The notes under the pieces were generated by a model. The model saw only the letters and a list, made by a program, of their open reading frames with translations. It ran no database searches and was not told the origin of the DNA. Positions 1 through 18,702 of a stretch of 64,000 nucleotides of DNA are shown here, piece after piece. The position numbers and the translations under genes were made by a program. Location of the stretch: positions 12,708-76,707 of the forward strand of contig DAOSDL010000005.1 of the NCBI GenBank assembly GCA_035362335.1, written 5' to 3'. Origin of the DNA: Bacteroidota bacterium (lineage in GTDB: Bacteria > Bacteroidota > Ignavibacteria > SZUA-365). Numbering within the stretch: position 1 is the stretch's first letter; each line of letters begins with the position of its first letter.

Positions 1-307
1 TCATCGTCTCCAGAATACGCAATTGATCGATGAGCACTTTCTGAATTTCGATCACGCGCTGCAGGCGGTTGACGCACACGCCGATGTCGGTTTCGGGAAC
101 CCGCTCGCGCGAGAGCAAGGCGATGACGGAATCCATTTCAAACAACACCTGCTTGAACCACAGCTCGTAGGCCTGATGCACCACGATGAACAGCATTTCG
201 TCGTGCGCGGGTTTGCCGTACTCCTCGCTTTTTCTGTGTTGGCTGTCGAGCAGGGTGTCGAGGCGCAGATAATCGGCGTAGTATATCGAGGGATAGGGTT
301 TGTCCAT
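1..307 (-). CDS. kynA: Tryptophan 2,3-dioxygenase, N-terminal ~102 codons; the gene runs off the window edge at position 1
   Basis: ATG at 307 (complement of cat 305-307). Hand translation: MDKPYPSIYYADYLRLDTLLDSQHRKSEEYGKPAHDEMLFIVVHQAYELWFKQVLFEMDS..., which matches the conserved TDO N-terminus (YxDYLxLDxLL...HQxYELWFKQ). The reading frame continues past position 1. This ORF is not in the ORF track because it is truncated. Confidence 0.8.
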   Translation of the reverse strand, partial: MDKPYPSIYYADYLRLDTLLDSQHRKSEEYGKPAHDEMLFIVVHQAYELWFKQVLFEMDSVIALLSRERVPETDIGVCVNRLQRVIEIQKVLIDQLRILETM

Positions 308-322
308 GTGCGTTCTCTTTCT

Positions 323-1711
323 TCACATGCCCGCGTCATCGGCGAAGGGCGGGAGCGTTGCGGTGATGAGACGGCGTGCAGCGTCGAGATCGATATCTTC
401 GATGCGCGCGACGCCCTCGGTGAGTTGTTCGAGTATGCGCTGTTGCAGCAATCCCCGCCGCAGCGCGGTGGCATAGGGCAACAGATGGAAGGAGACCATC
501 GAATACATGGGCACGAAATAGTCGGGAAAATGCCGCTCCAGCACGAGACCGGCGCGCTTCATGAAGAGGAAGCGCGGGTCGGCGACGAGGTCGCGCATTT
601 CAATGAAATTCCGCAGTGCCATGTCCGCGATGGCGTCGGCATTGTCCTTGCGGCGATGCTGCACCTCGGCGAAGACGCGCGCCCAGTCGGCGCCGTGCCG
701 TTCGATGGCGTGGTCCAACGCCACGCAATCCTCGAAGGCGCAGTTCATTCCCTGCCCGAAGAACGGCACGATGGCGTGCGCGGCATCGCCCAGCAGCAGG
801 GCCTTGCCTTCCGCATGCCAACGGTCCACGCGCACAGTGCCCAGATGTCCGGTGGGATTGGCGAAAAACTCCTCCTCCAGTTGCGGCATCAAGGCGAGCG
901 CGTCGGGGAAGTACTGCGCGAAGAAGCTCCGTACGGTCGCCGCGTCGCGCAAGCTGTCGAAGGAGGTGTCGCCCTCACGTTGGAGAAACAGCGTGCAGGT
1001 GAAGGTACGGTCGGGATTGGGCAGGGCGATCATCATGAACGAGCTGCGCGGCCAGATGTGCAGCACATCCGCTTCCATGCGGAACGCACCGTCGGGTCCG
1101 GGATGAATGGTCAGCTCCTTGTACCCGTGCTCGAGCATGTCCTGCGTACACCGATGCCCGCCGCGTCGCAGCATGGCGTCGCGCAGCGCGGAGGCGGCGC
1201 CGTCGGTGCCGATCACGGTTGCTCCCGACACGTGCTGTTGTTCGCCGCTGCGCTCGTCCACGAACAGTGCGCCGCATGCGTCCACATCCACATCCTCGCA
1301 GCGCTGCGAGAAATGCAGGGCCACGGACGGCAGCGCTTCCGCGGCGCTCAACAGGCGCTTGTTCAATTCCGCGCGCGACACAGAGTGAATCACCTCCTCG
1401 GGCCGCTGACCGTAGGGTTGGAAGGTGCGTGTACCGTCCACCGCGTGCATCATGCGTCCACGCATGGGAATGGCGATGGAGAGAATGTCGCGGTCGAGCC
1501 CCACGCGCGCCAGTGCGTCGATACCGCGCGCCGACAGCGCGAGATTGATGGAGCGTCCCGCGCCTGGCGTGCCGCCACGAGGGTCGGGTCGCCGCTCGAA
1601 GGCCCGCACGGCGATGCCTCGGCGCGCAAGGAACACGGCGAGCAGCGAGCCGGCCAGGCCCGCGCCGATCAGGGTCACCGGTGCATGCTGCGTCATTCCG
1701 TTTGTCTCCAT
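323..1711 (-). CDS. kmo: Kynurenine 3-monooxygenase (FAD-dependent)
   Basis: 462 aa. N-terminal FAD GxGxxG motif (IGAGLAGSLLAVFLARRG). Conserved GDAAHAIVPFFGQGMNCAFEDC flavin-monooxygenase motif typical of KMO. Sits 16 nt upstream of kynA on the same strand. Confidence 0.88.
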   Translation of the reverse strand: METNGMTQHAPVTLIGAGLAGSLLAVFLARRGIAVRAFERRPDPRGGTPGAGRSINLALSARGIDALARVGLDRDILSIAIPMRGRMMHAVDGTRTFQPYGQRPEEVIHSVSRAELNKRLLSAAEALPSVALHFSQRCEDVDVDACGALFVDERSGEQQHVSGATVIGTDGAASALRDAMLRRGGHRCTQDMLEHGYKELTIHPGPDGAFRMEADVLHIWPRSSFMMIALPNPDRTFTCTLFLQREGDTSFDSLRDAATVRSFFAQYFPDALALMPQLEEEFFANPTGHLGTVRVDRWHAEGKALLLGDAAHAIVPFFGQGMNCAFEDCVALDHAIERHGADWARVFAEVQHRRKDNADAIADMALRNFIEMRDLVADPRFLFMKRAGLVLERHFPDYFVPMYSMVSFHLLPYATALRRGLLQQRILEQLTEGVARIEDIDLDAARRLITATLPPFADDAGM

Positions 1712-1732
1712 AGTTCTCTCATCCCGGCCATA

Positions 1733-3031
1733 TTACACGGCGCTATCGCGCCAGAAGGTGTGAAAGGCGTCCGCCAGGCGCCACACATCCTCGAAGGTGT
1801 TGTACATCGGTACCGGTGCGGCGCGTATCACATCGGGCTCGCGCCAGTCGCAGACAATGCCCTGCCGGTGCAGATGGTCGAAGCAGGCGCGGCCGCGTTC
1901 GTGCAGGCGGATGGAAAGCTGGCATCCCCGCTGTTCCGGATCGGCGGGTGTGATAATCGACCAGGTGTCGCGCTGCCCGGCGCGCAGGAGTTGTTCGAGC
2001 CAGCCGGTGAGGCGCAGGCTTTTCGCGCGCAGCGCGGGCATGCCCGCTTCCTCGAACAGCGCCAGCGAAGCGCGCAACGCGGCCATGGGCAGCACGGCCG
2101 GATTACTCAACTGCCACCCGTCGGCGCCCGGGGCGGGCATGAATTGCCGTGGCATGGCAAAACGCGTGGCGGGGTCGTGCCCCCACCAGCCGCTGAAGCG
2201 GGGGAGGTCCGGCGCATGCTCATGCCGCGCGTGCACGAAACATGCGGCTGTGCCGCCGGGGCCGGAGTTGAGGTATTTGTACGAACACCACACCGCGAAG
2301 TCCGCATTCCATTCGTGCAGGTGCAGGGGAACATTGCCCGCCGCATGGGCCAGATCGAGGCCGGCCACCATACCTGCCGCATGCGCCGCGTCGATCAGAG
2401 CGGGAATGTCGAACAACTGTCCGTTGTAATAATTCACACCGCCCAGCAACAGCATCGCCGCCTCGTCGCGATACAGATGGATGAGGTCCAGCGCACGCTG
2501 CCTGTCGAAGAGTCCATCCTCGCTGAGGGGAAGCTCGATCAGATCGTGCTCCGGATCGCAGCCGTGAAAGCGCAACTGCGACATCACCGCGTATTGGTCG
2601 GAGGGAAAGGCCTTTTCCTCGATGATGATTTTCCGCCGGCGGCCTTCGGGACGGTAGAAGGAAACGAGCAGCAAATGCAGATTCACCGTCAACGTGTTCA
2701 TCGCCACCACCTCCGAGGGCAGCGCGCCCACAATGCGCGCCAGCGGTGCGGCGACCTCCTCGTGCGTGCGCATCCACGGATGCGGGCCGTCGAAATGTCC
2801 GTCCACGGCCAGGCGCGCCCAGGTGTCGAGCTCGGTGAGAAGCTCAGCTTCGGTTGCCCGGGGTTGCAGGCCGAGAGAGTTGCCGCTGAAATAGGCGATC
2901 TCGCGTCCCTCCGCATCCAGCGGAACGTGGAAGCGCGGACGAAGCGTGGGAAAGGCGTCGCCGTGGTCGAGCATGCGGGCGTGTTCGAGCGTGGCGGTCG
3001 CGTGCGATGAATACGTGGGCGGTGCTGTCAT
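1733..3031 (-). CDS. kynU: Kynureninase (PLP-dependent)
   Basis: The track ORF 1733..3844 carries a spurious N-terminal extension. The real start is MTAPPTYSS at 3031, preceded by a GGAG ribosome-binding site. Kynureninase-like motifs are present, including SYKYLNSGPGG. The start overlaps the upstream gene stop as ATGA (3028-3031). Confidence 0.88.
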   Translation of the reverse strand: MTAPPTYSSHATATLEHARMLDHGDAFPTLRPRFHVPLDAEGREIAYFSGNSLGLQPRATEAELLTELDTWARLAVDGHFDGPHPWMRTHEEVAAPLARIVGALPSEVVAMNTLTVNLHLLLVSFYRPEGRRRKIIIEEKAFPSDQYAVMSQLRFHGCDPEHDLIELPLSEDGLFDRQRALDLIHLYRDEAAMLLLGGVNYYNGQLFDIPALIDAAHAAGMVAGLDLAHAAGNVPLHLHEWNADFAVWCSYKYLNSGPGGTAACFVHARHEHAPDLPRFSGWWGHDPATRFAMPRQFMPAPGADGWQLSNPAVLPMAALRASLALFEEAGMPALRAKSLRLTGWLEQLLRAGQRDTWSIITPADPEQRGCQLSIRLHERGRACFDHLHRQGIVCDWREPDVIRAAPVPMYNTFEDVWRLADAFHTFWRDSAV

Positions 3032-3849
3032 TGCTCCGGAGAAATGGGGTAGAGAATCGGACGGCTGGGTGTCGCATCGGAGACGAACGCGGCAATCTGC
3101 AAGTTGAGCAAATAACGGCCATCCGGTACATGATCCGGAATATAGACCATTTCCGTGATGGTGCGAAGCCGGGGCGCGCCAACGGCGACGCGCTGCTGAC
3201 CGACGGGCATTTGCCAGAACGCGTGATGCGCGAGCATCTCGCCGCCATCGTCGTCGCGGTCCAGCGATGGCACATCCACCAGCAGATGGCGCACGTCGCG
3301 TTCGACAAGGCATTGCACCGCCTCCACAGTGAAATACGGTGCGCGTTGCCGCGTGTAATGGCGCGTGCGCTTGCTCTCGGGATTGGGCAGCGTGCGAATG
3401 ATCACGGCCTGGCCGAAGGAAATGTCCTGCGACTCCAGCGCGTGCCGCAACGCGGTGGCCGTGATCAGCGTGTCGTCGGATGTGGCGTTGTGCGCGGCGC
3501 TTTCGTGCGAGGCGGCGGCGGGCACCAGCACGGCGCTGACGAGTGTCGCCGGAATGAGCGAGCCAGGCAACACATCGGTGACGGGGATGCGCTCGACGGT
3601 GAGATGCCCGACGCATTCGGTGTGCGTGCCGTTGCAATGCGGCGTGAGAACGAGGGTTTCGACGTTGCAGCTCCCGCCGAGACGGGTGTCGCCCACGAGC
3701 GATCCCGCGCGCAACGCCTCGGCATGCGCGTCCGCAACACCGTAGGCGTTGGGTTGCGCGCCGTGGAAGTCGAGCGGGATGGCGATGCTGATGCCGGCAT
3801 CGAGGTCGGCATCGAATCGCGCCTGGCCGATGGTGATGGTGCAAATCAT
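3028..3849 (-). CDS. Cyclase-family protein, putative kynurenine formamidase (divergent KynB-like)
   Basis: 273 aa. Cyclase-family hallmarks are TPHCNGTHTECVGH (a variant of HxGTHxDxPxH), LLVDVPSLDRDDDG, and a C-terminal PDGRYLLNLQ region. ATGA overlaps at both ends (3846-3849 and 3028-3031). Lies inside the kynurenine operon. Confidence 0.6.
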   Translation of the reverse strand: MICTITIGQARFDADLDAGISIAIPLDFHGAQPNAYGVADAHAEALRAGSLVGDTRLGGSCNVETLVLTPHCNGTHTECVGHLTVERIPVTDVLPGSLIPATLVSAVLVPAAASHESAAHNATSDDTLITATALRHALESQDISFGQAVIIRTLPNPESKRTRHYTRQRAPYFTVEAVQCLVERDVRHLLVDVPSLDRDDDGGEMLAHHAFWQMPVGQQRVAVGAPRLRTITEMVYIPDHVPDGRYLLNLQIAAFVSDATPSRPILYPISPEQ

Positions 3850-4862
3850 CGGATAAAACGCTCCTTGGTTAAGCCGAGCCAGTGGAGGGCGTTCTCGCCA
3901 AGCAACTTTTGCTTGACGGTGTTCGGAAGTTCATCCATGGATTCGATCAATGCGCCCGGAATGGCCTCGCCCAGAGGGAAGGGATAGTCCGAGCCGAGGG
4001 TGACGCGGTCTTCGCCCACGAGATCGATGATGTAGCGCAACATCACCGCGTCGTGCACGAGCGAATCGAGCCAGAAGCGCCCGAGGTAGGCGCGCGGCTG
4101 CACGGGGTTGTCGATGGCCACCAGGTCGGGCCGCACGTTGAAGCCGTGCTCAATGCGCCCGAGTGTTGCGGGGAAGGAGCCGCCGCCATGCGCGAAATTC
4201 ACGCGCAGACGGGGCAGGCGCTCGAGCACGCCGCCGAAAATCATCGAGCAAATCGCGAGCGAGGTTTCGGCCGGCATGGCCACCAGCCAGGGCAGCCAGT
4301 AGCGCTGCATGCGGTCGCGCCCCATCATGTCCCAGGGATGCACAAACACAGCGGCGCCCAGTTCCTGCGCCGCTTCGAAAAAGGGAAACAGTGCGGGTTC
4401 GTTGAGATTCCAGTCGTTGACATGCGTGCCGATTTCCACACCGGCCAGGCCGAGTTCCTTCACCGCGCGTTCGAGTTCGCGAATGGCGAGCGCGGGATCC
4501 TGCAAGGGCACGGTGCCGAGTCCCACGAAGCGCTGTGGATGCCCCGCCACCGTGGCCGCGATGTGATCGTTGAGATAGCGGGACAGATCATGACCGTGCT
4601 CGGGCTTGGCCCAGTAGCTGAACATCACGGGCACGGTGGACAACACCTGCACGTGTACTCCATGCGTGTCGCATTCGCCGATGCGCACGGCGGGATCCCA
4701 GGAATTCGGATGAAAGGTGCGGAAATGCTTGCAGTCCACGAACATGTCGGCCGCACCGTCGTCGCGCCGCTGCAACGCGGGGAAGCCGCCATACCCGTAG
4801 CGCTCGGCCAGATCGGGCCAGGACGGCGGGAGTATGTGAGTGTGTACGTCGACTTTCAGCAT
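3846..4862 (-). CDS. 2-amino-3-carboxymuconate-6-semialdehyde decarboxylase (ACMSD, amidohydrolase-2 family)
   Basis: 338 aa. Long stretches match ACMSD as I recall it from metazoan/Pseudomonas enzymes: MLKVDVHTHILPPSWPDL, STVPVMFSYWAKPE, YWLPWLVAMPAETSLAICSMIFGGV, FAHGGGSFP, LGSDYPFPLGE. Ribosome-binding site TGAGGA upstream of the ATG at 4862. Confidence 0.9.
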   Translation of the reverse strand: MLKVDVHTHILPPSWPDLAERYGYGGFPALQRRDDGAADMFVDCKHFRTFHPNSWDPAVRIGECDTHGVHVQVLSTVPVMFSYWAKPEHGHDLSRYLNDHIAATVAGHPQRFVGLGTVPLQDPALAIRELERAVKELGLAGVEIGTHVNDWNLNEPALFPFFEAAQELGAAVFVHPWDMMGRDRMQRYWLPWLVAMPAETSLAICSMIFGGVLERLPRLRVNFAHGGGSFPATLGRIEHGFNVRPDLVAIDNPVQPRAYLGRFWLDSLVHDAVMLRYIIDLVGEDRVTLGSDYPFPLGEAIPGALIESMDELPNTVKQKLLGENALHWLGLTKERFIR

Positions 4863-4937
4863 GCGTCCTCAGGTACTCGTTACAGGCGTGCGGGGAGTGC
4901 TTGGAAACGGGACCGGGCGGATGGCCGCGGCGAGCCC

Positions 4938-5462
4938 TCAGCGCGCGGGCACGGGCGCTTCCATCACCGCGCCGCATTGGCTGCAACGGCGCAGTTGTTC
5001 GGAGCCATAAAAACGCTCCATGATGGGTGGAAACTGCGTGACGATGTTTTCCAGCGTGAAATACTCCTCGTGCAACGGAGCATTGCATTGCTCGCAAAAC
5101 CAGAGAAATCCGTCCTGTTCACCCTCGCGGCGCTTGCGTTCGATTACCAGGCCCACGGTATTGGCCGGCCGTTGCGGCGAATGCGGCACGCGGGCGGGGA
5201 GGAGGAAGATCTCGCCCGGCCGCAGCTTCACCGCGCGACGCTCGCCATCCACGATGAGATGCAGCGTGATCTCGCCTTCGATTTGATAGAAAAACTCCTC
5301 GCCCTCGTTGTAATGGTAGTCCTTGCGGGCGTTGGGTCCGCCCACAATCATGACGATGAACTCCGCATTCTCGAACACCTGCAAGTTGCCCACCGGGGGT
5401 TTGAGCAAGTGGCGGTGTTCTTCTATCCATTGTTGAAGGTTGATGCCCTGTGATGTATACAT
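4938..5462 (-). CDS. 3-hydroxyanthranilate 3,4-dioxygenase (cupin)
   Basis: 174 aa. The cupin core (PNARKDYHYNEGEEFFYQIEGEITLHL) and the C-terminal Cys-rich rubredoxin-like segment (CEQC...CSQCG) are typical of HAAO/NbaC. Confidence 0.88.
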   Translation of the reverse strand: MYTSQGINLQQWIEEHRHLLKPPVGNLQVFENAEFIVMIVGGPNARKDYHYNEGEEFFYQIEGEITLHLIVDGERRAVKLRPGEIFLLPARVPHSPQRPANTVGLVIERKRREGEQDGFLWFCEQCNAPLHEEYFTLENIVTQFPPIMERFYGSEQLRRCSQCGAVMEAPVPAR

Positions 5463-5472
5463 GCGAACCTCG

Positions 5473-5886
5473 TCAAATCGTGGCGATACATTTCAACTCG
5501 ATGGCGATGGGGGTGGGGAGCGAGAGCACCTCCACGGTGGTGCGGCAGGGCCGGTTGTCCCGGAAATACTCCGCGTACACGCGGTTGAAGGTGGCGAAAT
5601 CCTTTTTCATGTCGGTGAGGAACACCGTCACATCCACAAGATTTTCCCAGGCCGCGCCGGCGTCCTCCAGCACGGCGCGCACATTGCGGAACACGCTGTG
5701 GCATTGCCGCTCGAAATCGTAGCTGATGACGCGGCCGTCCGCATCCACTTCCACGCCGGGCACGTCGTCGACGCCGCGTTCGCGCGGACCGATGCCCGAG
5801 AGAAACAGCAGATTGCCCACGCGACGCGCGTGCGGGTACAGGCCCACGGGCTCGGGAGCGGAGGAGGAGTGGATTTCCTCGTTCAT
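5473..5886 (-). CDS. RidA/YjgF-family protein, likely 2-aminomuconate deaminase
   Basis: RidA fold motifs are present (FLSGIGP, TVFLTDM, VEVLSLP). The ATG at 5886 overlaps the upstream ALDH stop as ATGA (5883-5886). The track start at 5910 is a GTG that lies upstream of this. Confidence 0.72.
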   Translation of the reverse strand: MNEEIHSSSAPEPVGLYPHARRVGNLLFLSGIGPRERGVDDVPGVEVDADGRVISYDFERQCHSVFRNVRAVLEDAGAAWENLVDVTVFLTDMKKDFATFNRVYAEYFRDNRPCRTTVEVLSLPTPIAIELKCIATI

Positions 5887-7397
5887 GGCGATGTTCCCAG
5901 ATGGATGCACACGTTGGTGGGTTCGGTGAAAAAGCGCAGCGCTTCCCAGCCGCCTTCGCGTCCGATGCCGCTCTGCTTCACGCCGCCGAAGGGCGTACGC
6001 AAATCACGCAGCATCCAGCAATTCACCCACACGATGCCCGCCTCCAGCGCGCCGGCAACGCGATGGGCGCGGAGCAGATCGCGCGTCCACAGCGACGCGG
6101 CGAGTCCGTAGGGCGTGGAGTTGGCGATGGCCAGCGCCTCTTCCTCGCTGTCGAAGGGCAGCAGCGTGACCACGGGACCGAAGATCTCTTCCTGATTCGT
6201 GCGGCACTGCGCCGACAGGCCGTCGATCACGGCGGGCGTGAGGAAGGCGCCACCGGCACAGCGGCCATCGGGCACGATGCGCTCACCGCCGCACAGCACC
6301 GTGCCACCCTCCTCGCGGGCAAGCTGCACATAGCTCAGGACTTTGTGGAGATGTTCCTCCGAAACCAAGGCGCCGATGCGCGTGTCGGGGTCCAGGGGAT
6401 CGCCCACACGCAGAGCGCGCACCTCGTCCACGAAGCGCGCGCGGAAGCGGTCGTACAAGCCGCGTTGCACGAGGATGCGCGAACCGCAAAGGCAGATTTC
6501 GCCCTGATTCGAGAAGGCCGAGCGCACGATGGTGGGCAGGATATCCTCCAGATCCACATCGTCGAAGACGATGGTGGGATTCTTGCCTCCCAGCTCCAGC
6601 GAGAGCTTTTTGAACATCGGCGCCGCCGTCGCGGCGATGGAGGCGCCGGTGCGCGTGCCGCCGGTAAAGGAAATAGCCGGCACATCCGGATGCGCGCAGA
6701 GGGGAGCGCCGACGTCCGCGCCGCGTCCATGCACGATGTTGAGCACGCCGGCGGGCAATCCGGCCTCGATGCACAGCTCCGCGAAGCGACCGGCGGTGAG
6801 CGGCGTCAATTCCGAGGGCTTGGCCACAACGCAACTGCCGGCGGCCAGCGCCGGGGCGATTTTCCAGGTGAAGAGGTACAGCGGCAGATTCCATGGTGAA
6901 ATGCAGGCCGCCACGGGTATGGGACGACGCAGCGTGTAGTTCAACGCCAGCGTATCGCTATGATGCGCCTCGTCGTGGTCGTGGAGAATGGCGGTGGCAA
7001 AAAATCGCAGATTGCGGGCCGCGCGCGGAATGTCCACCGTGCGCGCGAGCGTGAGCGGCTTGCCGTTGTCGCGCGATTCCAGCGCGGCGAGTTCTTCCAG
7101 ATGTTCTTCGACCAGGGTGGCGAGGCGCAGCAACAGCCGCGAACGCTGTTCCGCCGGTGTCGTGGCCCAGTGCCGTGCCTGTTGCGCCGCGCGGACGGCG
7201 GCGTCCACATCGCGGGCGTCGGATGCGGCCGCCATGGCGATGGTCGCGCCCGTCGCCGGCTCCAGCACGGGCAGCCAGTCGCCGCCTTCCGGATCCACCA
7301 ATGCGCCGCCGATGTAATTGCGAATGTAGTGCATGTCGTGCATCATGCGGACGCTTTCGCGACTGCGTTGCGCGCCGCCTGCTTTCTTTTGTGTCAT
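5883..7397 (-). CDS. NAD-dependent aldehyde dehydrogenase, likely 2-aminomuconate-6-semialdehyde dehydrogenase
   Basis: 504 aa. ALDH motifs present: ELGGKNP, FSNQGEICLCGSRILV, FGGVKQSGIGREGG. It is the first gene of the kynurenine operon. The N-terminus is uncertain (ATG at 7397 with no RBS, or an internal MM at about 7346). Confidence 0.85.
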   Translation of the reverse strand: MTQKKAGGAQRSRESVRMMHDMHYIRNYIGGALVDPEGGDWLPVLEPATGATIAMAAASDARDVDAAVRAAQQARHWATTPAEQRSRLLLRLATLVEEHLEELAALESRDNGKPLTLARTVDIPRAARNLRFFATAILHDHDEAHHSDTLALNYTLRRPIPVAACISPWNLPLYLFTWKIAPALAAGSCVVAKPSELTPLTAGRFAELCIEAGLPAGVLNIVHGRGADVGAPLCAHPDVPAISFTGGTRTGASIAATAAPMFKKLSLELGGKNPTIVFDDVDLEDILPTIVRSAFSNQGEICLCGSRILVQRGLYDRFRARFVDEVRALRVGDPLDPDTRIGALVSEEHLHKVLSYVQLAREEGGTVLCGGERIVPDGRCAGGAFLTPAVIDGLSAQCRTNQEEIFGPVVTLLPFDSEEEALAIANSTPYGLAASLWTRDLLRAHRVAGALEAGIVWVNCWMLRDLRTPFGGVKQSGIGREGGWEALRFFTEPTNVCIHLGTSP

Positions 7398-7600
7398 GAG
7401 AAATGAACAATCTCAAAATACACGACATGGCGAAAATCGCAAGCGTACGGGACGGATGAGGTCGCGGCATGTACTTCGCGATGCTACGGACTCCGTGGAG
7501 ATTGAATTCAAGCTCAAAACCACAGTCATTCATGTTCCTTCGTCACACCCGGGAGAATGAAAATGGTGCGGAGATTGGATTATTCGGATTCGACACGGTT

Positions 7601-8071
7601 TTAAAACCACGGATTTCGCAGATTATCCACAGATTAGCACAGATTATTCGTGGAAGTCCACAAGGATCCGAGCAGTAGCCGCAAGGAAAGCAATCCAACA
7701 CCTGTTGTCGAAAGTGACGCGAAACACGCGTACATTGCCTGCTGGGACAGCGGTGGTGCGGGTTGACTCCCGGCTACTACCGTCAAACTTTACTCTTTAC
7801 TCTTCACTCTTTACTCATCACCGCGCAGAAGCGCATGATGCAGGCAGCGACACTATTTTCAGAGCAGATTGCACGGATTGCACACAGATTAGCATAGATT
7901 ATTCGTGGAAGTCGGCGAGGTGCCGGGCGAATCGTCGCAGATGAAGCGATCAGACGCCCGCTGACAGCAGTGATGCGAATCGGCGTTTATTGCCTGCGGT
8001 GCCGGCGGGAGTACGGGTTGGCTCCTGCGACTACCGTCAAACTTTACTCTTTACTCTTCACTCTTTACTCA
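7601..8071. repeat. Imperfect tandem duplication (2 x about 215-245 bp) in a 700-bp ORF-free, AT-richer spacer
   Basis: Copy 1 is about 7601-7817 and copy 2 about 7861-8071. They share a near-identical head (cagattagcaYagattattcgtggaagtc) and an identical 41-bp tail (ctaccgtcaaactttactctttactcttcactctttactca). The tail on the other strand reads as four GAGTRAA heptads. An exact TTATCCACA sits at 7623-7631. Confidence 0.6.
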
Positions 8072-8109
8072 ACGCATCACTGCGCAACCGACATGCCGAT
8101 GCGGCAGGG

Positions 8110-8562
8110 TCACGAAATGAAGCGGATGCTCAGCGGGTAGCGATAGGCCTCGCCGCGGTAGCTGCGCACGGACGCCACGATGACGAGGACGAGATTGGTG
8201 ATGCCGAGCGCGATCATCAGCAACAGCGAGAGACCGGCCGTGACCCCGAGTCCGAACACGCTCTCCTGCACGGCTGCCGACAGCATGCCGGTGACAAACA
8301 CCACCATCAGCACGATGAAGTAGATGGTCATGCTGATCTGGAAATTCATGGATTCCTTGCCCTGATCGTTCACCAGCGGCATCTCATCCTTTTTCATCAA
8401 CCACACGGTGAGCGGACCGAAAATGTGACCGAAGGGAACGATCACCGATGCGAATGTGGACAGGTGGCAGAGCATGCCCCAGGTGTGGATTTGATCTTCG
8501 CGCATGCGTGCCAACTGTGCGGCGACATCCTGCGTCGCTTGTTCCTGCGTGCCGTCGTTCAT
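8110..8562 (-). CDS. Small membrane protein (DUF4870-like)
   Basis: 150 aa with about 3-4 hydrophobic helices. ATG at 8562. Confidence 0.55.
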   Translation of the reverse strand: MNDGTQEQATQDVAAQLARMREDQIHTWGMLCHLSTFASVIVPFGHIFGPLTVWLMKKDEMPLVNDQGKESMNFQISMTIYFIVLMVVFVTGMLSAAVQESVFGLGVTAGLSLLLMIALGITNLVLVIVASVRSYRGEAYRYPLSIRFIS

Positions 8563-10268: not shown

Positions 10269-10412
10269 AGATATTCCACAAACGGCGGACCGATGGCCCG
10301 CCGTTTTCTTTTCGAAGGAAAAGACCCGCGACTCCCGCGTTTGCGGAGTATGCGGATTTCATCGCATCTTACCTGCGAATGCGTCTCTCCTGTCACACCC
10401 GCGGACTCGACC

Positions 10413-12482
10413 ATGCATCGTTACCCCACCTTCATTCTCACCGTGCTTCTCCTCTGCATCACCGTCCCCGCCTCATGGGCGCAACAGGACGTCAATCGCG
10501 CGCGCCTCGCGGCGGCGGGTGGCGCCTGGATCGGCACAGCGGATGTGCTTGTCGTGTATGACAGCACCTCCGTGGACGTGCAGGAAAGCGGCCTCAGTTA
10601 CGTGCACATGCACAAACTCACCAAAGTGCTCACCGCGAAGGGCGCCATGAGTCTGCGGACGGTGGTGTTCGACTACGATCCGCTGTCGGCAGCGGTGGAG
10701 CTGCTGCTCGTGCGCATCTACCGCGCCGATGGTTCGGTGGAAGTGGTGGCCGCCGACCGCGTGCATGACTATCCCGCGCCGGCGCGCGCCATTTACTGGG
10801 GCGCGCGGCAGAAGCTGGTGGACATCGGCCGTCTCGAGGTGGGCGACGCGGTGGAAACCGTGGCCTTTCGCAAGGGCTTCACCTATGCGCTGCTCGGGAG
10901 CGAGGAGGACGACAGCCGCTTCGTTCCACCCATGCGCGGGCATTTTTACGATATCGTGGAATTCTGGTCCGCCGTTCCCGTGGCGGAAAAAGTGTATCGC
11001 GTGTTCATGCCGGCGGACAAGCCCTTGCAGTACGAGGTGTACAACGGCGAGGTCGCTTCCTACATCCATTTCCATCCGCAGCATCAGCATCGCGTGAAGG
11101 TTGCGGTGAATCCCACCGGCGCGCAGGCACTCACAAGCGAGGATGCCCTGCATCCCACCTCGGGCATGGTGACGCGGCCGGGCAAGGTGACCTACTGTTG
11201 GTACAAGCGCAACATCACGCCGTTGCGGCGCGAGAGCGACATGGTCGATCCTTCGGATGTCGCGCCCAAGTTGCTGCTTTCCACTTCGCCGGACTGGTAT
11301 GCGAAGGCGGTGTGGTTTCACGGTGTAAACGAGGATTTCGGCAGCTTCGCCGTCACGCCCGAAGTGCAGGCGCAGACCGACAAGCTGCTGCACGGGGTAA
11401 GTGGAGAGCAGGAAAAAATCGCCGTGCTCAATCACTGGGTGGCCGAGGAAATCCGCTACTCCGGTATTTCCATGGGGCAGGGCGAGGGCTACACGTTGCA
11501 CACCGGGCAGATGACCTACCTCGATCGCTGCGGTGTGTGCAAGGACAAGGCCGGCATGCTCGTGACCATGCTGCGCGCGGCGGGCTTCGAGTCCTATCCC
11601 GCCATGACCATGGCAGGTTCGCGCATCGATCGCATTCCCGCCGATCAATTCAACCACAGCGTCGCCGCGGTGAAGCTGAGCACAGGCGAGTGGATGCTGC
11701 TGGATCCAACGTGGATTCCCGGCGTGCGCGAAATGTGGTCCAGCGCCGAGCAGCAGCAGGAATTCCTGCTCGGCATTCCCGGTGGCGCCGATGTGATGAG
11801 TACGCCGGTGTCGCCCGCCGAAAATCACTACTGGAAGGCCGTCAACCACGCCACGCTGGCCGAGGATGGCAGTCTCGAGGGCACGGTGACCATCGAAGCC
11901 GAGGGGCAGAGCGATTCCATGCTGCGCCGGGCATTCGCGCGTTCGTATCGCTCGTCGTGGGAGGATCAGTTCACCACGCTGTTCCTGCGGAAATTTCCGC
12001 AGGCCACGGTGGGCGTGAGCGCGATGACAAGAATCGAGGATTTGTCCGTCCCCTTTTCCATTACTCTCACGTATCGCATTCCCGCCTACGCGACGATTGA
12101 CGGGAAGAAGGTGCTGCTGCGCTCGCTGCTGCTGGACACGCCGTTCGACGACAGCTTCAACGCGGCGGAGCTGGGCATAGCCACGGCGCTGGAGAAGCGC
12201 GACTATGGTTTCCGGACGCGCTGCTCGAAACTCGTGCGTCTCGACGAGACGATCACGCTTCCGGCGTCGCTGCGTGCCGAGCGTTTGCCCGACCGCGTGC
12301 AGCACATCGCGGCGCCCGCCAGTTTCATCGCGGCGGTGACGATGGAGGGCAACGCGCTCAGCATTTCCGCCGAGCATCGTCTGGAGAAGCGCCTGTACGA
12401 AGCGGCTGAATGGCCGGCGTTCCGCGCCGCCTTGCTCGCGCGAAAGGAACTCTCGTCCACACCCATCATTCTCTCACGCTAG
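10413..12482 (+). CDS. Secreted DUF3857 / transglutaminase-like cysteine protease-fold protein
   Basis: The track ORF starts at 10293. A signal-peptide start MHRYPTFILTVLLLCITVPASWAQQ at 10413 is more likely. Transglutaminase-like core: GVCKDKAGMLVTMLRAAGF (Cys), NHSVAAV (His), LLDPT (Asp). Confidence 0.78.
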   Translation: MHRYPTFILTVLLLCITVPASWAQQDVNRARLAAAGGAWIGTADVLVVYDSTSVDVQESGLSYVHMHKLTKVLTAKGAMSLRTVVFDYDPLSAAVELLLVRIYRADGSVEVVAADRVHDYPAPARAIYWGARQKLVDIGRLEVGDAVETVAFRKGFTYALLGSEEDDSRFVPPMRGHFYDIVEFWSAVPVAEKVYRVFMPADKPLQYEVYNGEVASYIHFHPQHQHRVKVAVNPTGAQALTSEDALHPTSGMVTRPGKVTYCWYKRNITPLRRESDMVDPSDVAPKLLLSTSPDWYAKAVWFHGVNEDFGSFAVTPEVQAQTDKLLHGVSGEQEKIAVLNHWVAEEIRYSGISMGQGEGYTLHTGQMTYLDRCGVCKDKAGMLVTMLRAAGFESYPAMTMAGSRIDRIPADQFNHSVAAVKLSTGEWMLLDPTWIPGVREMWSSAEQQQEFLLGIPGGADVMSTPVSPAENHYWKAVNHATLAEDGSLEGTVTIEAEGQSDSMLRRAFARSYRSSWEDQFTTLFLRKFPQATVGVSAMTRIEDLSVPFSITLTYRIPAYATIDGKKVLLRSLLLDTPFDDSFNAAELGIATALEKRDYGFRTRCSKLVRLDETITLPASLRAERLPDRVQHIAAPASFIAAVTMEGNALSISAEHRLEKRLYEAAEWPAFRAALLARKELSSTPIILSR

Positions 12483-12493
12483 GAGGCAGTGTC

Positions 12494-14377
12494 ATGAAAT
12501 CCCTTTCCGCCATCCTGGCCATGCTGTTCTGCGCCGCTCCGCTGCTGGCGCAAACGCCATCCACCGCCGACGCCGAGTACCTGCTCGTCGAGCATCATTT
12601 CACGCTGCGCGACGACGGCAGCACGGTGTACACGTACCATCACAAACTGAAGTATCTCACGTCGTATGGATTCAGCCGCGCCTACGGCGAATCCTTCATC
12701 GTGTACAATCCCACCTGGCAGAAGCTGACCGTCGACAGGTCCGTGACCACCATGGCGAACGGGCAGGTGGTGTCCGCACCGTTCAATGCGTTCAACGAAG
12801 TGCTTCCCGGCTATGCCGCGCAGGCGCCCGCGTATTTGCATTTGCGTGAAATGGTGGTGACGCACACCGGCCTGGAAATCGGCGCGGTGGTGGATTTTTC
12901 CTACACCATCACCAGCAAGCCCGGCATGCTGCCCGGATTGATGGGCAAGGTGCTGTTCGGCGAGCGCAGTCCCATTGCCCGCATGGTGGTGACCGTGGAT
13001 ATTCCGGCCAAGGCCACGTTGAAATACGCCATGCTGCGCGATGCCGCGGTGCTTCCTTTCATCGCCGCGAAGGATGGCCGCCAGGTGTTCACCTGGGAGA
13101 AATCGGATCTCCCGATCTATGAAGTCGAAGCCATGCAGCCGGCCATGGACGAAGTATTGCCCGCGCTGGTGTTTTCCACCGTCACACTCAAGGATTGCGC
13201 CAGCCATGTCGCCGCCGGCATTGCCACGGGCAAGGCCACGCGCCGCATGAGCGATGTGGTGAAGGCCAACACGACAGGAAGCACCGACAAGCGCGACAAC
13301 GCTCTGAAGCTGCGCGGCTGGGTGGCGGACAACGTGGCACGCGCGCCGCTGCCGCTGGACATGCAGGGGTACATCCCGGCGAAAGCCGAGTTCACCTTCG
13401 AGAAGCGCTCGGGCTCGGATCTCGATCGCGCGGTGCTGCTCGCGCAACTCTGCCGCGAGGCGGGACTCGATGCCGTAGCCGCGCTGGCAAGCAGGGATCT
13501 CAGCGGCGCCATGTCGGCAACGGACGATGCGCTTGTGGCACAGGGCGTCGCGGGAATGCCGGATGTACCGGCGCTGCAACTGTTCACACGCGCTGTGGTG
13601 CTGTGCCGCGACGCATCCTTCGATGGCGGCATGCTTGTGCTGGATCCGGCCTCGGCGCAGAGCGGCCCACTCACCGCTGGCACCGCGGCCGCCATGCTGC
13701 TGCCGCTGGACAATACGGCTGCGATGAAGGATGTGCTGCCGCTGGCGCTGCCCAAGGCCATAGTGCGCATGACAAGCGATTGGACGCTGCGTGAGGATGG
13801 CACTGTGGCGGGAAAAACCCTGCTTCATGCGCAGGGCTATCGCAGCTACGCCTTCGATGGTGCCGCGATGCAGCGTGCTCTGCGTCAGGGCGTGCAGAGT
13901 GCCGCGCAAGGCCTGACCGTGACCCCCGGCGCGATGCAGTCCGCCAGCGCATTTGTCTCGACCTGTGAGGCGGATCTCGGAGCGGGCACGCCGTTGAAAG
14001 CCACGGCGGGTTACGCGCGTTTCGCCTTGCCGACGGTGCCCGGCGGGGTCGCCGAGCTGCGCTTCGTGCCCGCCGATGTGCGGCGGACCTCGCCGGTGCA
14101 GTTGCCGAGCGCAATGGTCGAGGAGCAGTTCCTGACGCTGCATCTGCCGTCGGGAGTGGAAGTGGTGGACGCCGCGGCGCAACGCGAGTTGAGCAACGCG
14201 GTGGGTTCGGTGCGCAGTGTGATCACCGTTGACGGAGAGAGCGTGGAAGTGAAGCGCACGCTGCGCATTGACGTGCAGCGCGTACAGCCCACGCAGTACG
14301 AGGATTTCGCCGCGCTGCTGCGCATCTGGCTCGATCCATCGCATACGCAGCTTCTGCTGCGCATGCCGACGAAGTAA
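12494..14377 (+). CDS. Secreted DUF3857-like paralog; the transglutaminase-like core appears to lack the catalytic Cys
   Basis: AGGAGG ribosome-binding site at 12481-12486, then ATG at 12494 (MKSLSAILAMLFCAAPLLAQT signal peptide). The equivalent of the GVCKDKA motif reads GSDLDRAVLLAQLCREAG, with Asp in the Cys position. Starts 11 nt after the upstream stop. Confidence 0.7.
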   Translation: MKSLSAILAMLFCAAPLLAQTPSTADAEYLLVEHHFTLRDDGSTVYTYHHKLKYLTSYGFSRAYGESFIVYNPTWQKLTVDRSVTTMANGQVVSAPFNAFNEVLPGYAAQAPAYLHLREMVVTHTGLEIGAVVDFSYTITSKPGMLPGLMGKVLFGERSPIARMVVTVDIPAKATLKYAMLRDAAVLPFIAAKDGRQVFTWEKSDLPIYEVEAMQPAMDEVLPALVFSTVTLKDCASHVAAGIATGKATRRMSDVVKANTTGSTDKRDNALKLRGWVADNVARAPLPLDMQGYIPAKAEFTFEKRSGSDLDRAVLLAQLCREAGLDAVAALASRDLSGAMSATDDALVAQGVAGMPDVPALQLFTRAVVLCRDASFDGGMLVLDPASAQSGPLTAGTAAAMLLPLDNTAAMKDVLPLALPKAIVRMTSDWTLREDGTVAGKTLLHAQGYRSYAFDGAAMQRALRQGVQSAAQGLTVTPGAMQSASAFVSTCEADLGAGTPLKATAGYARFALPTVPGGVAELRFVPADVRRTSPVQLPSAMVEEQFLTLHLPSGVEVVDAAAQRELSNAVGSVRSVITVDGESVEVKRTLRIDVQRVQPTQYEDFAALLRIWLDPSHTQLLLRMPTK

Positions 14378-16283: not shown

Positions 16284-17255
16284 ATGACCATGTCCCCGCT
16301 TCTTTCCCGCGAACAATTGCATGAGGCCGCCGAACGCATCCGGCCTTTCATCCATCGCACACCGGTGTTGACTTGTGGCACCATCGACCGCCTCCTGGGC
16401 GCCAGGTTTTTTTTCAAATGTGAAAATTTCCAGAAAGTCGGCGCCTTCAAGTACCGTGGCGCCACCAATGCCGTGCGCAGTCTTGACGGCATGCTGGCCG
16501 CGCGCGGCGTGGCCACGCACAGTTCCGGCAATCATGCGGCCGCGCTGGCGCTAGCGGCGGCCTTGCGAGGCATCCCCGCGCACATCGTCATGCCCGACAA
16601 CGCCCCCGCCATCAAGAAGGCCGCCGTGGCGGGCTACGGAGCACGCATCACCTTCTGCGCTCCGACACTCGCCGCGCGCGAGGAAACGCTTGCGGCAGTG
16701 ATTGCGGATAGCGGCGCAACGGAAGTCCATCCCTACAACGACGTGCGCATTATCGCGGGGCAGGCCACCGCGGCGCGGGAGCTGTTCGAGGACGTTCTGG
16801 ATCTTGATGTGGTGATGACGCCTGTGGGCGGCGGGGGGCTGCTGAGCGGAACGGCGCTATCGGCGCATTACCTCTCGCCCGGCACCGCGGTGATTGCCGC
16901 CGAGCCCGCCGGCGCCGACGATGCGTATCGCAGTTTCCACGCCGGACACATCATTCCTTCGGTACACCCGCGCACCATCGCCGATGGCCTGCTCACATCG
17001 CTGGGCGACAATACCTTTGCGGTGATACGCGATCATGTGCGGGACATTCTCGTCGTCGACGACGCGCATATCATCAAGGCGATGCGTCTGGTGTGGGAGC
17101 GCATGAAAATCGTGATCGAGCCCTCCGCCGCGGTACCGCTGGCCGCTCTTCTGGCCGGCGCGATGGATTGCGCCGGAAAACGCATCGGCATCATTTTCTC
17201 CGGAGGAAATTGCGATCTCGAGCAACTGCCATGGATGAAGGAGCGCGAGGCATGA
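16284..17255 (+). CDS. PLP-dependent beta-eliminating lyase (threonine dehydratase / serine racemase family)
   Basis: 323 aa. Lysine motif ENFQKVGAFKYRGA, plus HSSGNHA and the Gly-rich loop VGGGGL. Confidence 0.8.
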   Translation: MTMSPLLSREQLHEAAERIRPFIHRTPVLTCGTIDRLLGARFFFKCENFQKVGAFKYRGATNAVRSLDGMLAARGVATHSSGNHAAALALAAALRGIPAHIVMPDNAPAIKKAAVAGYGARITFCAPTLAAREETLAAVIADSGATEVHPYNDVRIIAGQATAARELFEDVLDLDVVMTPVGGGGLLSGTALSAHYLSPGTAVIAAEPAGADDAYRSFHAGHIIPSVHPRTIADGLLTSLGDNTFAVIRDHVRDILVVDDAHIIKAMRLVWERMKIVIEPSAAVPLAALLAGAMDCAGKRIGIIFSGGNCDLEQLPWMKEREA

Positions 17256-17950
17256 TCGACAACTACGACGCGATGTTTCTCGACGCCGACGAAACGCTGT
17301 TCGACTACGCCGCCGCCGAGCGCGCGGCTTTCACGCTGTGCATGCGCAGCTTCGGTCTGCCCGAGGACGAGGCCAGCTACGCATTGTATCGCAAGCACAA
17401 CGCCGATGTGTGGAGCGAACTCGAGCAGGGGAGCATCGATCCCGAAACACTGAAGGTCGAGCGCTTTCGGCGTTTGCTCGACGCGCTCGGTCGCAACGGT
17501 GTGCCGCTGCGCGAACTCAGCGCCTGCTACCTCGACATGCTTTCGCGGCAGGCCCAGCTCCTGCCCGGAGCCGAGAATGCGGTGCACACGCTGGCGCGCC
17601 ATCGACCTCTGGCCCTGATCACCAATGGCCTGTCGCTGGTGCAGCGGCGACGCTTCGCTGCGACGCCGTGCATCGCATTGTTTCGCCACATCGTGATTTC
17701 GGAGGAGGTGGGCATAGCCAAGCCCGATCCGGCGATTTTCGCATCCGCGCTGCACGCATTGCGGGTTGCCCCCGAGCGCGTGCTGTACGTGGGCGATAGT
17801 GTGAGCAGCGACATGCGCGCGGCGGCCAATGCGGGCATGGACTTTTGCTGGATCAATGCCGCGAACGCCGCGTTGCCCGAGGACGGGCAGGCGCGCTTCA
17901 TTGTGCGTTCGATCACCGATCTGCCGGCATTGCTGGGAGTGGCGGAGTGA
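17252..17950 (+). CDS. HAD-superfamily hydrolase (YjjG-like)
   Basis: Real start MIDNYDAMFLDADETLFD (DxDxT motif) at 17252, overlapping the upstream stop as ATGA. Late motif YVGDSVSSDMRAA. Confidence 0.8.
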   Translation: MIDNYDAMFLDADETLFDYAAAERAAFTLCMRSFGLPEDEASYALYRKHNADVWSELEQGSIDPETLKVERFRRLLDALGRNGVPLRELSACYLDMLSRQAQLLPGAENAVHTLARHRPLALITNGLSLVQRRRFAATPCIALFRHIVISEEVGIAKPDPAIFASALHALRVAPERVLYVGDSVSSDMRAAANAGMDFCWINAANAALPEDGQARFIVRSITDLPALLGVAE

Positions 17951-18702
17951 AGGACAACACCATCGTGATCATCGGTGCCTCGCGGGGCATAGGCGCGGCT
18001 CTGGTCCGCGAGTATCTGGCGCGGGGTTGCCACGTGTTGGCGGCGTCGCGCGATCTCGCCGCGCTCGAAGCGCTGCGTGGGGCGGCGCCGGAAGGCATGC
18101 TGGATGTCGTGCAATGCGATGCCGCGCAGCCGGGGGCAGTGCGTTTTGTGCTGGAGCGCGCCGAGGCACGGTGGCCGCGTGTGGACCTGCTGCTGTACAA
18201 TGCCGGCGCGGATCATGCCGCGTGGATGGATACCTTCACCGCCGAGGACTTCCGAGCCCTGCTGGCGGTGAACACCTCGGGATTGGCCGAGGCGCTGGAA
18301 TGTTCCTACGCACTGTTTCGTCGACAGGGCGGGGGCGTGTTTGCGGGAGTAAGCAGTCTTGCCGATGCGCGGGGATACCCCGGATCGGCGTCGTACTGCG
18401 CCTCGAAGGCCGCCGCTTCCACGCTGCTCGAGGCGGCGCGTGCGGAATTGCGCCAAGGGCCGATACACGTGCTCACGGTGCGCCCCGGCTTCGTCCGCAC
18501 GGACATGACGGCCAAGAACACCTTTCCCATGCCGCTGCTCATGGAAGCCGCGGAGGCGGCACGCATCATCGTGCGCGGTATCGAACGAAGGAAGTCCGTC
18601 ATCACCTTTCCCTGGCCCATCGCATTCGCCACGCGCATCATCCGTGTCCTCCCCGATCGTCTGTTCGCGGCTCTGGCCTTGCGTGGTCGTCGACGCCGAT
18701 AA
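17947..18702 (+). CDS. Short-chain dehydrogenase/reductase
   Basis: GTG start at 17947 overlapping the HAD stop (GTGA). IVIIGASRGIGAAL (TGxxxGxG), NAG motif, and the YxxxK motif in SYCASKAA. Confidence 0.72.
   Translation: MKDNTIVIIGASRGIGAALVREYLARGCHVLAASRDLAALEALRGAAPEGMLDVVQCDAAQPGAVRFVLERAEARWPRVDLLLYNAGADHAAWMDTFTAEDFRALLAVNTSGLAEALECSYALFRRQGGGVFAGVSSLADARGYPGSASYCASKAAASTLLEAARAELRQGPIHVLTVRPGFVRTDMTAKNTFPMPLLMEAAEAARIIVRGIERRKSVITFPWPIAFATRIIRVLPDRLFAALALRGRRRR

Follow-up and report, generated by a model that had tools for sequence, protein, structure and literature searches.

The window analysed here is a 64,000-nucleotide stretch of a Bacteroidota genome from the class Ignavibacteria (contig DAOSDL010000005.1). 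Eight consecutive open reading frames (ORFs) on its minus strand, at positions 2–7397, are read as an aerobic tryptophan-degradation operon that follows the kynurenine pathway. Judged by homology, every step that leads from tryptophan to 2-oxohex-3-enedioate has its enzyme encoded here. Catabolism is favoured with moderate confidence as the main role of the operon, and quinolinate would be a side product. The cluster is of an already known kind, conserved in many related bacteria, and is not unusual. Its genes, in the order of transcription, and a promoter-like motif before the first of them are as follows.

7414–7442, minus strand: putative promoter-like motif of the Bacteroidota type, TTGCGATTTTC-N-TATTTTG, whose end lies 16 nt upstream of the ATG at 7397
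5883–7397, minus strand: AMSDH, 2-aminomuconate-6-semialdehyde dehydrogenase, 504 aa as called
5473–5886, minus strand: AMD, RidA-family predicted 2-aminomuconate deaminase, 137 aa
4938–5462, minus strand: HAO, 3-hydroxyanthranilate 3,4-dioxygenase, 174 aa, bacterial single-domain form
3846–4862, minus strand: ACMSD, the decarboxylase of 2-amino-3-carboxymuconate semialdehyde (ACMS)
3028–3849, minus strand: CYC, cyclase-fold (PF04199) metal hydrolase and predicted kynurenine formamidase, about 273 aa
1733–3031, minus strand: KYNU, kynureninase of the animal (3-hydroxykynurenine-preferring) type, 432 aa
323–1711, minus strand: KMO, kynurenine 3-monooxygenase, 462 aa
2–307, minus strand: TDO, tryptophan 2,3-dioxygenase, N-terminal 102 codons, cut by the window start

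Structure of the operon

The eight genes lie where the initial annotation had placed them. Each ORF begins with ATG, and the seven that fall entirely inside the window all end in TGA or TAA. Third-position GC is 0.73–0.83 in all eight, as in real genes of the same genome, and every product has strong family or structure matches (E-values from 1e-15 to 1e-167, far beyond chance). Comparison of each protein with profiles and solved structures, a check that the initial annotation had proposed, matched the enzyme families of the pathway and supported all eight assignments, including the tentative one of a cyclase-family formamidase. From AMSDH towards TDO the successive gaps between genes are -4, 10, 75, -4, -4, 21 and 15 nt. 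The ATGA overlaps described earlier are exact at all three junctions (5883–5886, 3846–3849 and 3028–3031). A reversed pathway order had also been described, and this holds roughly, though not as an exact reversal: numbered by pathway step, the genes read 7, 8, 5, 6, 2, 4, 3, 1.

Relatives were collected by a scan for CYC with one genome per species, which returned at least 582 genomes; locus counts given below refer to the 80 best loci. Seven of these 80 (L001, L004, L006, L015, L026, L030 and L073) carry the eight genes in exactly the order of the window and are referred to as colinear. A look-up of the exact KMO sequence of the window gave no record, and information on the flanks comes from L001, a contig of a Bacteroidota metagenome-assembled genome (JAMIQH010000142.1) whose proteins are 94–99% identical to those of the window and whose flanking genes are the same.

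The operon is probably transcribed as a single unit from a promoter just upstream of AMSDH. This reading is based on the three 4-nt overlaps and the remaining gaps of at most 75 nt, on the junction of ACMSD and CYC, at which 15 of 24 related loci show -4 or -1 nt, on the retention in relatives of the promoter-like motif before the first gene, and on internal promoter-like and terminator-like sites that do not exceed chance frequency. Overlaps of four bases are frequent in bacterial operons and unremarkable by themselves; translational coupling at the ATGA junctions would be consistent with them. The two-box motif TTGCGATTTTC-N-TATTTTG, which we take to resemble the promoter type of Bacteroidota, is found ahead of the first operon gene in L001, L006, L030 and L073 as well, four of the seven colinear loci. 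Scans of positions 1–8200 for sigma-70 promoters and terminators gave counts at or below chance, both scans being without weight for this phylum. Rfam had no match over the whole window, so no riboswitch or leader RNA was detected. No transcription factor adjoins the operon, in agreement with the initial annotation.

Identity of the enzymes

The window holds only 102 codons of TDO, with the haem-binding C-terminal part outside it, and comparisons of this enzyme were made with the full-length ortholog of L001 (363 aa, 99% identical to the window fragment). The fragment itself matches Pfam Trp_dioxygenase (PF03301) at 109.6 bits against a cutoff of 34.9, and the L001 protein reaches 370 bits over 332 of the 346 profile positions. 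Among solved structures the latter scores 346 bits with the fly enzyme, 326 with the human and 127 with that of Xanthomonas. It falls below the bacterial TDO equivalog TIGR03036 (190.9 bits, cutoff 390.7) and is of the long, animal-like form.

KMO is closest in the PDB to the P. fluorescens enzyme (368 bits), followed by two more KMO structures, presumably mammalian, at 308 and 291 bits; PDB 4j2w/4j33, at 213 bits, is presumably yeast KMO. The next flavoprotein that is not a KMO scores 51 bits. The FAD-binding GxGxxG motif is present as GAGLAG from residue 16. Kynureninase matches NCBIfam TIGR01814 at 424 bits (cutoff 246.4) and has the pyridoxal phosphate (PLP)-lysine motif SYKYLN at residue 250. 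Against solved structures it gives 374–381 bits with the human enzyme and 170 with that of P. fluorescens. HAO exceeds the cutoffs of both NF009763 (265 bits, cutoff 220) and TIGR03037 (250 bits, cutoff 146), and scores 189 bits with the bacterial structure 1yfu and 163 with the human enzyme. Its iron ligands H50, E56 and H94 are present, together with a pair of CxxC motifs (residues 123 and 160).

ACMSD had been described as strikingly near the metazoan enzyme, and this is borne out by 58.5% identity to human ACMSD over 335 residues in an ungapped alignment, and by 465 bits with the human enzyme compared to 246 with that of P. fluorescens. No NCBIfam model matches the protein. It carries H7, H9, R48, H175, W192, H225, R236 and D292, at an ungapped offset of +1 to 2wm1. 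These are the positions of the zinc ligands and the substrate-binding arginines and tryptophan of human ACMSD, which we take to be H6, H8, H174, D291, H224, R47, R235 and W191.

The best solved relatives of this protein are AMSDHs, namely 4u3w (461 bits), 7bzv (450 bits) and 4i1w (423 bits). It remains below the equivalog cutoffs of HpaE and of 2-hydroxymuconic semialdehyde dehydrogenase (539 bits against 693 for the latter). R125, N170, E268, C302 and R464 are found where the offsets of the 4i1w match predict them; the corresponding residues of P. fluorescens AMSDH are presumably the catalytic Cys302, Glu268 and Asn169 and the carboxylate-binding Arg120 and Arg464. This residue check does not separate AMSDH from 2-hydroxymuconic semialdehyde dehydrogenase. 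The true start of the protein may be Met18, Met19 or Met22 (7346, 7343 or 7334) rather than 7397, because homologues begin just before a conserved I(R/L)NYI motif.

AMD matches Pfam Ribonuc_L-PSP at 99 bits and the canonical Rid model TIGR00004 at 101.6 bits, just below the cutoff of 106.25. Its scores of 79.6 bits with 6izh, a solved 2-aminomuconate deaminase, and 86.5 bits with PH0854 do not separate it from generic RidA proteins. It shares with 6izh, with no long gap, an insertion of ~12 residues that canonical RidA/YabJ proteins lack, as well as the N-terminal motif PH..R.G..LF.SG. Across related clusters AMD is 60–77% identical. A RidA-family deaminase is the validated step after 2-aminomuconate in bacteria and fungi, and human RidA does not deaminate this compound (preprint 10.64898/2026.06.05.730449).

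From these comparisons, the description of the pathway as eukaryote-like appears half right. It suits TDO, kynureninase and ACMSD. It does not suit KMO and HAO, which have higher bacterial scores, or the formamidase and the deaminase, which are of bacterial or fungal type.

The predicted cyclase-fold formamidase

CYC belongs to the Pfam Cyclase family (PF04199, 55.8 bits) and is only 21–23% identical to KynB. The metal ligands of KynB are His50, His54, Asp56, His60, His161 and Glu173, and Asp56 is strictly conserved in 336 aligned KynB sequences that are at least 30% identical to BaKynB (PMC4243253). Nine residues of CYC (H71, H76, E78, H82, S195, D197, H208, E233 and D258) are invariant in 25 aligned relatives. 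In a HMMER alignment to 4cz1 they correspond, in this order, to H50, H54, D56, H60, S149, D151, H161, E173 and D198 of BaKynB. All six metal-ligand positions are thus kept, five of them with identical residues (H71, H76, H82, H208 and E233) and the sixth with Asp56 replaced by Glu78. Three second-shell or active-site residues of KynB (S195, D197 and D258 in CYC) are also kept.

An AlphaFold (AF2) model of CYC has a mean pLDDT of 81 and a pTM of 0.84, with the metal-loop residues 70–77 below 50. When this model was compared with the PDB by Foldseek, three KynB structures came out on top (E 2e-10 to 4e-9, target TM 0.74–0.77), and other cyclase-fold hydrolases ranked below them. Of the 80 best loci, 66 have kynurenine genes beside CYC, in at least four gene orders and several phyla. 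In loci of the Lutimonas type the set is reduced to TDO-CYC-KYNU, in which the formamidase is the sole step otherwise missing.

Based on the conserved active-site residues, the best fold match and the neighbourhood of kynurenine genes, CYC is well supported as a kynurenine formamidase that would act like KynB while belonging to a separate clade. It shares with KynB (PDB 4co9, 4cob and 4cog; PMC4243253) the fold, the genomic partners, the positions that make up the two-metal site and those of Ser149, Asp151 and Asp198. The two differ in length (about 273 aa for CYC, about 207 aa for KynB) and in motif, which is HCNGTHTE in CYC and HxGTHxD in KynB.

Two findings weigh against this assignment. 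CYC fails the KynB equivalog TIGR03035 (28.4 bits, cutoff 223), and an invariant Glu78 stands where KynB has its strictly conserved Asp56. These findings, the one extra residue between the first two histidine ligands compared with KynB, and the 14 of 80 loci in which CYC has no kynurenine neighbour would suit an enzyme that catalyses some other hydrolysis or cyclisation, N-formylkynurenine then being handled by an unlinked or unspecific enzyme. Such a role is very improbable given the nine retained active-site residues, the top fold match to KynB, and the embedding of CYC in kynurenine clusters of varied order and phylum, including those in which only the formamidase step would otherwise be missing.

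Proposed pathway

With CYC as the formamidase, the operon would encode eight successive steps. TDO would open the indole ring to give N-formylkynurenine, from which the CYC metal hydrolase would remove formate. KMO would then hydroxylate kynurenine, and the animal-type kynureninase would release alanine and 3-hydroxyanthranilate. Ring opening by HAO would produce ACMS, which ACMSD would decarboxylate. AMSDH would oxidise the resulting semialdehyde to 2-aminomuconate, and the RidA-type deaminase would release ammonia to leave 2-oxohex-3-enedioate (4-oxalocrotonate). The cell would gain formate, alanine, ammonia and NADH, and the six-carbon acid would be finished by enzymes encoded elsewhere. 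Part of the ACMS is expected to cyclise spontaneously to quinolinate, by which the operon could also feed NAD synthesis, as in mammalian liver. ACMSD would set the split between quinolinate and the 2-aminomuconate branch.

Distribution and gene order

The initial annotation regarded such an operon as unusual for its type of organism. This view does not hold: relatives of CYC are spread over at least 582 genomes, counted at one per species, and the complete set of eight genes is found in 14 of the 80 loci, seven of these 14 having the order of the window. The seven colinear loci are labelled Bacteroidota, Ignavibacteria and, in one case, a 'Chromatiales' metagenome-assembled genome, and have a GC content of 52–65%. 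A nine-gene version, TDO-SDR-ALDH-RidA-HAO-ACMSD-CYC-KYNU-KMO, is found in Flavobacteriales, and looser versions of the cluster occur in Pyrinomonadaceae (Acidobacteriota).

In five loci from marine Flavobacteriales (L019, L051, L061, L067 and L074) the gene at the position of ACMSD is 29–31% identical to the ACMSD of the window, compared to 57–80% in other loci. This gene encodes either an ACMSD that has diverged strongly or a displaced amidohydrolase.

The reduced set TDO-CYC-KYNU, corresponding to the anthranilate branch, is present in L009, L028, L032, L034, L036, L054 and L062, from Lutimonas and related Flavobacteriaceae. These loci share their neighbourhood with the nine-gene version of L079. 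A genuine nadA-nadB pair lies a few kb upstream in six of the seven. It looks as if loss of the 3-hydroxyanthranilate branch goes together with having an aspartate route to NAD in these loci.

In 16 of the 80 loci the kynurenine cluster has a dedicated short-chain dehydrogenase (SDR) gene embedded in it, in three gene orders and two phyla. Examples are L042 (5799–6578), L079 (5489–6277) and L014 (9174–9965), and the median identity within the family is 60%. The encoded enzyme is a candidate to catalyse the step that is missing beyond the deaminase. The window was searched for this SDR, for nadA and nadB, and for an RsmB-like gene described below, and none was found in it. The one SDR that the window does encode (17845–18702) is only ~22% identical to this cluster-linked family and was rejected as an ortholog.

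Physiological role

Catabolism is favoured as the role of the operon because ACMSD is encoded in step with HAO, because ACMSD, AMSDH and AMD are encoded together, and because nadB lies near the clusters of Pyrinomonadaceae. In three loci of that family with KMO and kynureninase in the cluster, two of which also have ACMSD, nadB is found 4–6.5 kb from CYC. This nadB is genuine (TIGR00551, 554 bits, cutoff 453), and the kynurenine pathway therefore appears to coexist with the aspartate route to NAD in Pyrinomonadaceae. A Pfam scan of the ~48 ORFs of the 64 kb window revealed no nad genes, and nadC is absent from the window and from all 80 loci.

Several observations speak against a catabolic role. 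In the same Pfam scan the 4-oxalocrotonate branch was not represented by any tautomerase, decarboxylase, hydratase or aldolase, whose absence from the DNA following the operon had been pointed out in the initial annotation, and no 2-oxoadipate/glutaryl-CoA route turned up. In the seven colinear loci, the flanks of 10 kb are likewise free of lower-pathway genes, of a route to 2-oxoadipate and of nad genes, and no acetaldehyde dehydrogenase of the meta-cleavage lower pathway is linked to the operon, either among the window ORFs or in the colinear flanks. Among syntenic Flavobacteriaceae, a locus without KMO, HAO and ACMSD has nadA-nadB nearby, and a full-pathway locus lacks both of these genes in the stretch seen. 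This comparison hints that the full pathway may be able to replace the aspartate route. Finally, the closest relative (L001) is a metagenome-assembled genome.

As the main alternative, the operon would chiefly be a de novo route to NAD through quinolinate, of the kind described for Cytophaga and Flavobacteria, in which ACMSD, AMSDH and AMD serve as an overflow valve that clears surplus ACMS and limits quinolinate and picolinate. The full set of five enzymes leading from tryptophan to ACMS is encoded, the lower catabolic genes are absent nearby, and the pattern in Flavobacteriaceae, where the reduced TDO-CYC-KYNU set lies beside nadA-nadB and the full version does not in the stretch seen, would fit. 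NAD synthesis through the kynurenine pathway has moreover been reported in Bacteroidetes (PMC4217691; Kurnasov 2003, as cited in PMC10143591). However, with ACMSD and HAO on the same transcript, ACMS would be diverted from quinolinate, and three further dedicated enzymes exceed the need of a valve. The lack of nadC in the window and in all 80 loci, and the nadB near the kynurenine clusters of Pyrinomonadaceae, also argue against this explanation, which we consider possible but rather unlikely.

A further alternative is that HAO, ACMSD, AMSDH and AMD mainly degrade 3-hydroxyanthranilate derived from other aromatic compounds of the 2-nitrobenzoate kind, the tryptophan genes being incidental. HAO, ACMSD and AMSDH are indeed common to the 2-nitrobenzoate pathway (PMC10143591). 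But TDO, CYC, KMO and KYNU are interleaved with the downstream genes and overlap them, as in the 4-nt overlap of ACMSD and CYC, and the whole eight-gene set travels together in 14 loci. Pfam scans of the window found no nitroreductase or mutase gene. It thus seems highly unlikely that the operon serves other aromatics in the first place.

Comparison with known systems

Bacterial clusters that include the 2-aminomuconate branch are known from Burkholderia cenocepacia (Colabroy & Begley 2005) and from the nba genes of P. fluorescens KU-7 (Muraki 2003), as cited in PMC10143591 and in preprint 10.64898/2026.06.05.730449. As in the operon described here, HAO, ACMSD, AMSDH and a RidA-family deaminase are clustered in both, and the KynB of B. 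cenocepacia is among the top fold matches of CYC. The two clusters are said to continue with genes for 4-oxalocrotonate decarboxylase, hydratase and aldolase. In contrast to that layout, no lower-pathway genes were found in the window or in the colinear flanks. The proteins differ as well: TDO, kynureninase and ACMSD of the window are animal-like and score two to three times lower against proteobacterial enzymes, and CYC lies outside the KynB equivalog family.

A bacterial pathway from tryptophan to quinolinate that supplies NAD has also been described (Ternes & Schonknecht 2014, PMC4217691; Kurnasov et al. 2003, as cited in PMC10143591). It uses the same five enzymes from tryptophan to ACMS and occurs in the same phylum. 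In the operon, by contrast, ACMSD, AMSDH and AMD are added, which would pull flux away from quinolinate, and no nadC is linked. Lima et al. in 2009 reportedly assigned this route from tryptophan to quinolinate to Flavobacteriales and Xanthomonadales.

The mammalian liver pathway has the same order of reactions and the same branch point at ACMS. Animals differ in using an alpha/beta-hydrolase as formamidase (PMC4243253), where the operon has a cyclase-fold metal enzyme. After 2-aminomuconate they use an ASPDH-type reductase (preprint 10.64898/2026.06.05.730449), where the operon has a deaminase, like fungi and bacteria.

Flanking regions

Upstream of the operon, on the same strand, lie a gene for a DUF4870 membrane protein and an ORF with weak likeness to kinases, followed by the divergent gene for ribosomal protein S4. 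The intergenic region before the operon measures 712 bp, compared to 208 bp in L001, and is widened by a tandem duplication of ~255 bp (7612–8071) that comprises three repeat blocks 77–96% identical. In L001 the distal repeat block is present as a single copy, and the block containing GAGTAAAGAGTGAAGAGTAAAGAGTAAAG is missing altogether; within the window the latter block occurs in just two places, both inside the duplication. Four or five AATCTGTG-like direct repeats spaced 9–11 nt apart are also found on the minus strand (7615–7645 and 7879–7890), ~200–500 nt upstream of the operon, and are kept in L001 (about 5890–5930). The paired pattern has four matches, where 0.29 would be expected from shuffled sequence. 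This array could be a candidate operator for an unlinked regulator.

At the other end, beyond the window start, a gene for an RsmB-like methyltransferase directly follows TDO on its 3' side in all seven colinear loci. Its product falls below the RsmB equivalog cutoffs. It is located at 14258–14971 in L001, 14737–16314 in L004, 14522–15883 in L006, 14576–16003 in L026 and 14682–16151 in L073, and in three of the seven it has a 4-nt overlap with the stop of TDO. Since this gene lies behind TDO in every colinear locus, the transcription unit is probably nine genes long.

Three further groups of plus-strand genes were noted in the window.

10293–12482 and 12410–14377, plus strand: adjacent large paralogues, the first with DUF3857 and a transglutaminase-like core, the second with DUF3857 and DUF3858
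16284–17255, plus strand: PLP enzyme nearest to the beta-hydroxyaspartate dehydratase BhcB (459 bits, cutoff 550)
21602–24372, plus strand: citrate lyase genes, with an acyl carrier protein (ACP, CitD-like) domain fused to the N-terminus of a CitE-like HpcH/HpaI subunit

The DUF3857 paralogues are kept beside rpsD in L001, L004 and L026. Their ORFs overlap by ~70 nt, so one start is probably miscalled. No further genes of the beta-hydroxyaspartate cycle were seen near the BhcB-like enzyme. In the citrate lyase genes CitF comes after the CitE-like subunit, with overlapping reading frames. The HpcH/HpaI match (21602–22822) was considered as a lower-pathway aldolase and rejected, the ACP fusion and the following CitF identifying it as citrate lyase.

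Implications

The result mostly tidies annotation. Public pipelines label CYC merely 'cyclase family protein', ACMSD has no NCBIfam match and TDO falls below its equivalog cutoff, and automated reconstructions would therefore miss the complete route. This complete route of tryptophan degradation is widespread in genomes of the FCB group and of Acidobacteriota. The animal-like TDO, kynureninase and ACMSD would be useful bacterial stand-ins for human drug-target enzymes, and they are relevant to the debate on how the eukaryotic pathway arose.

New biochemistry may lie in the fate of 2-oxohex-3-enedioate, in the cluster-linked SDR of the relatives and in the formamidase clade with the glutamate variant. 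A more speculative reading, which we consider rather unlikely, would have both an undescribed bacterial SDR route to 2-oxoadipate and an uncharacterised clade of formamidases. The operon stops at 2-oxohex-3-enedioate with no known lower pathway, and the SDR embedded in 16 of the 80 clusters could convert either 2-aminomuconate or 2-oxohex-3-enedioate to 2-oxoadipate. If so, it would be a bacterial counterpart of the ASPDH-type step only now reported for animals, and the lineage of the window would carry out this step with an unlinked enzyme. The 273-aa HCNGTHTE clade, for its part, would provide the formamidase of the pathway throughout Bacteroidota, Ignavibacteria and Acidobacteriota.

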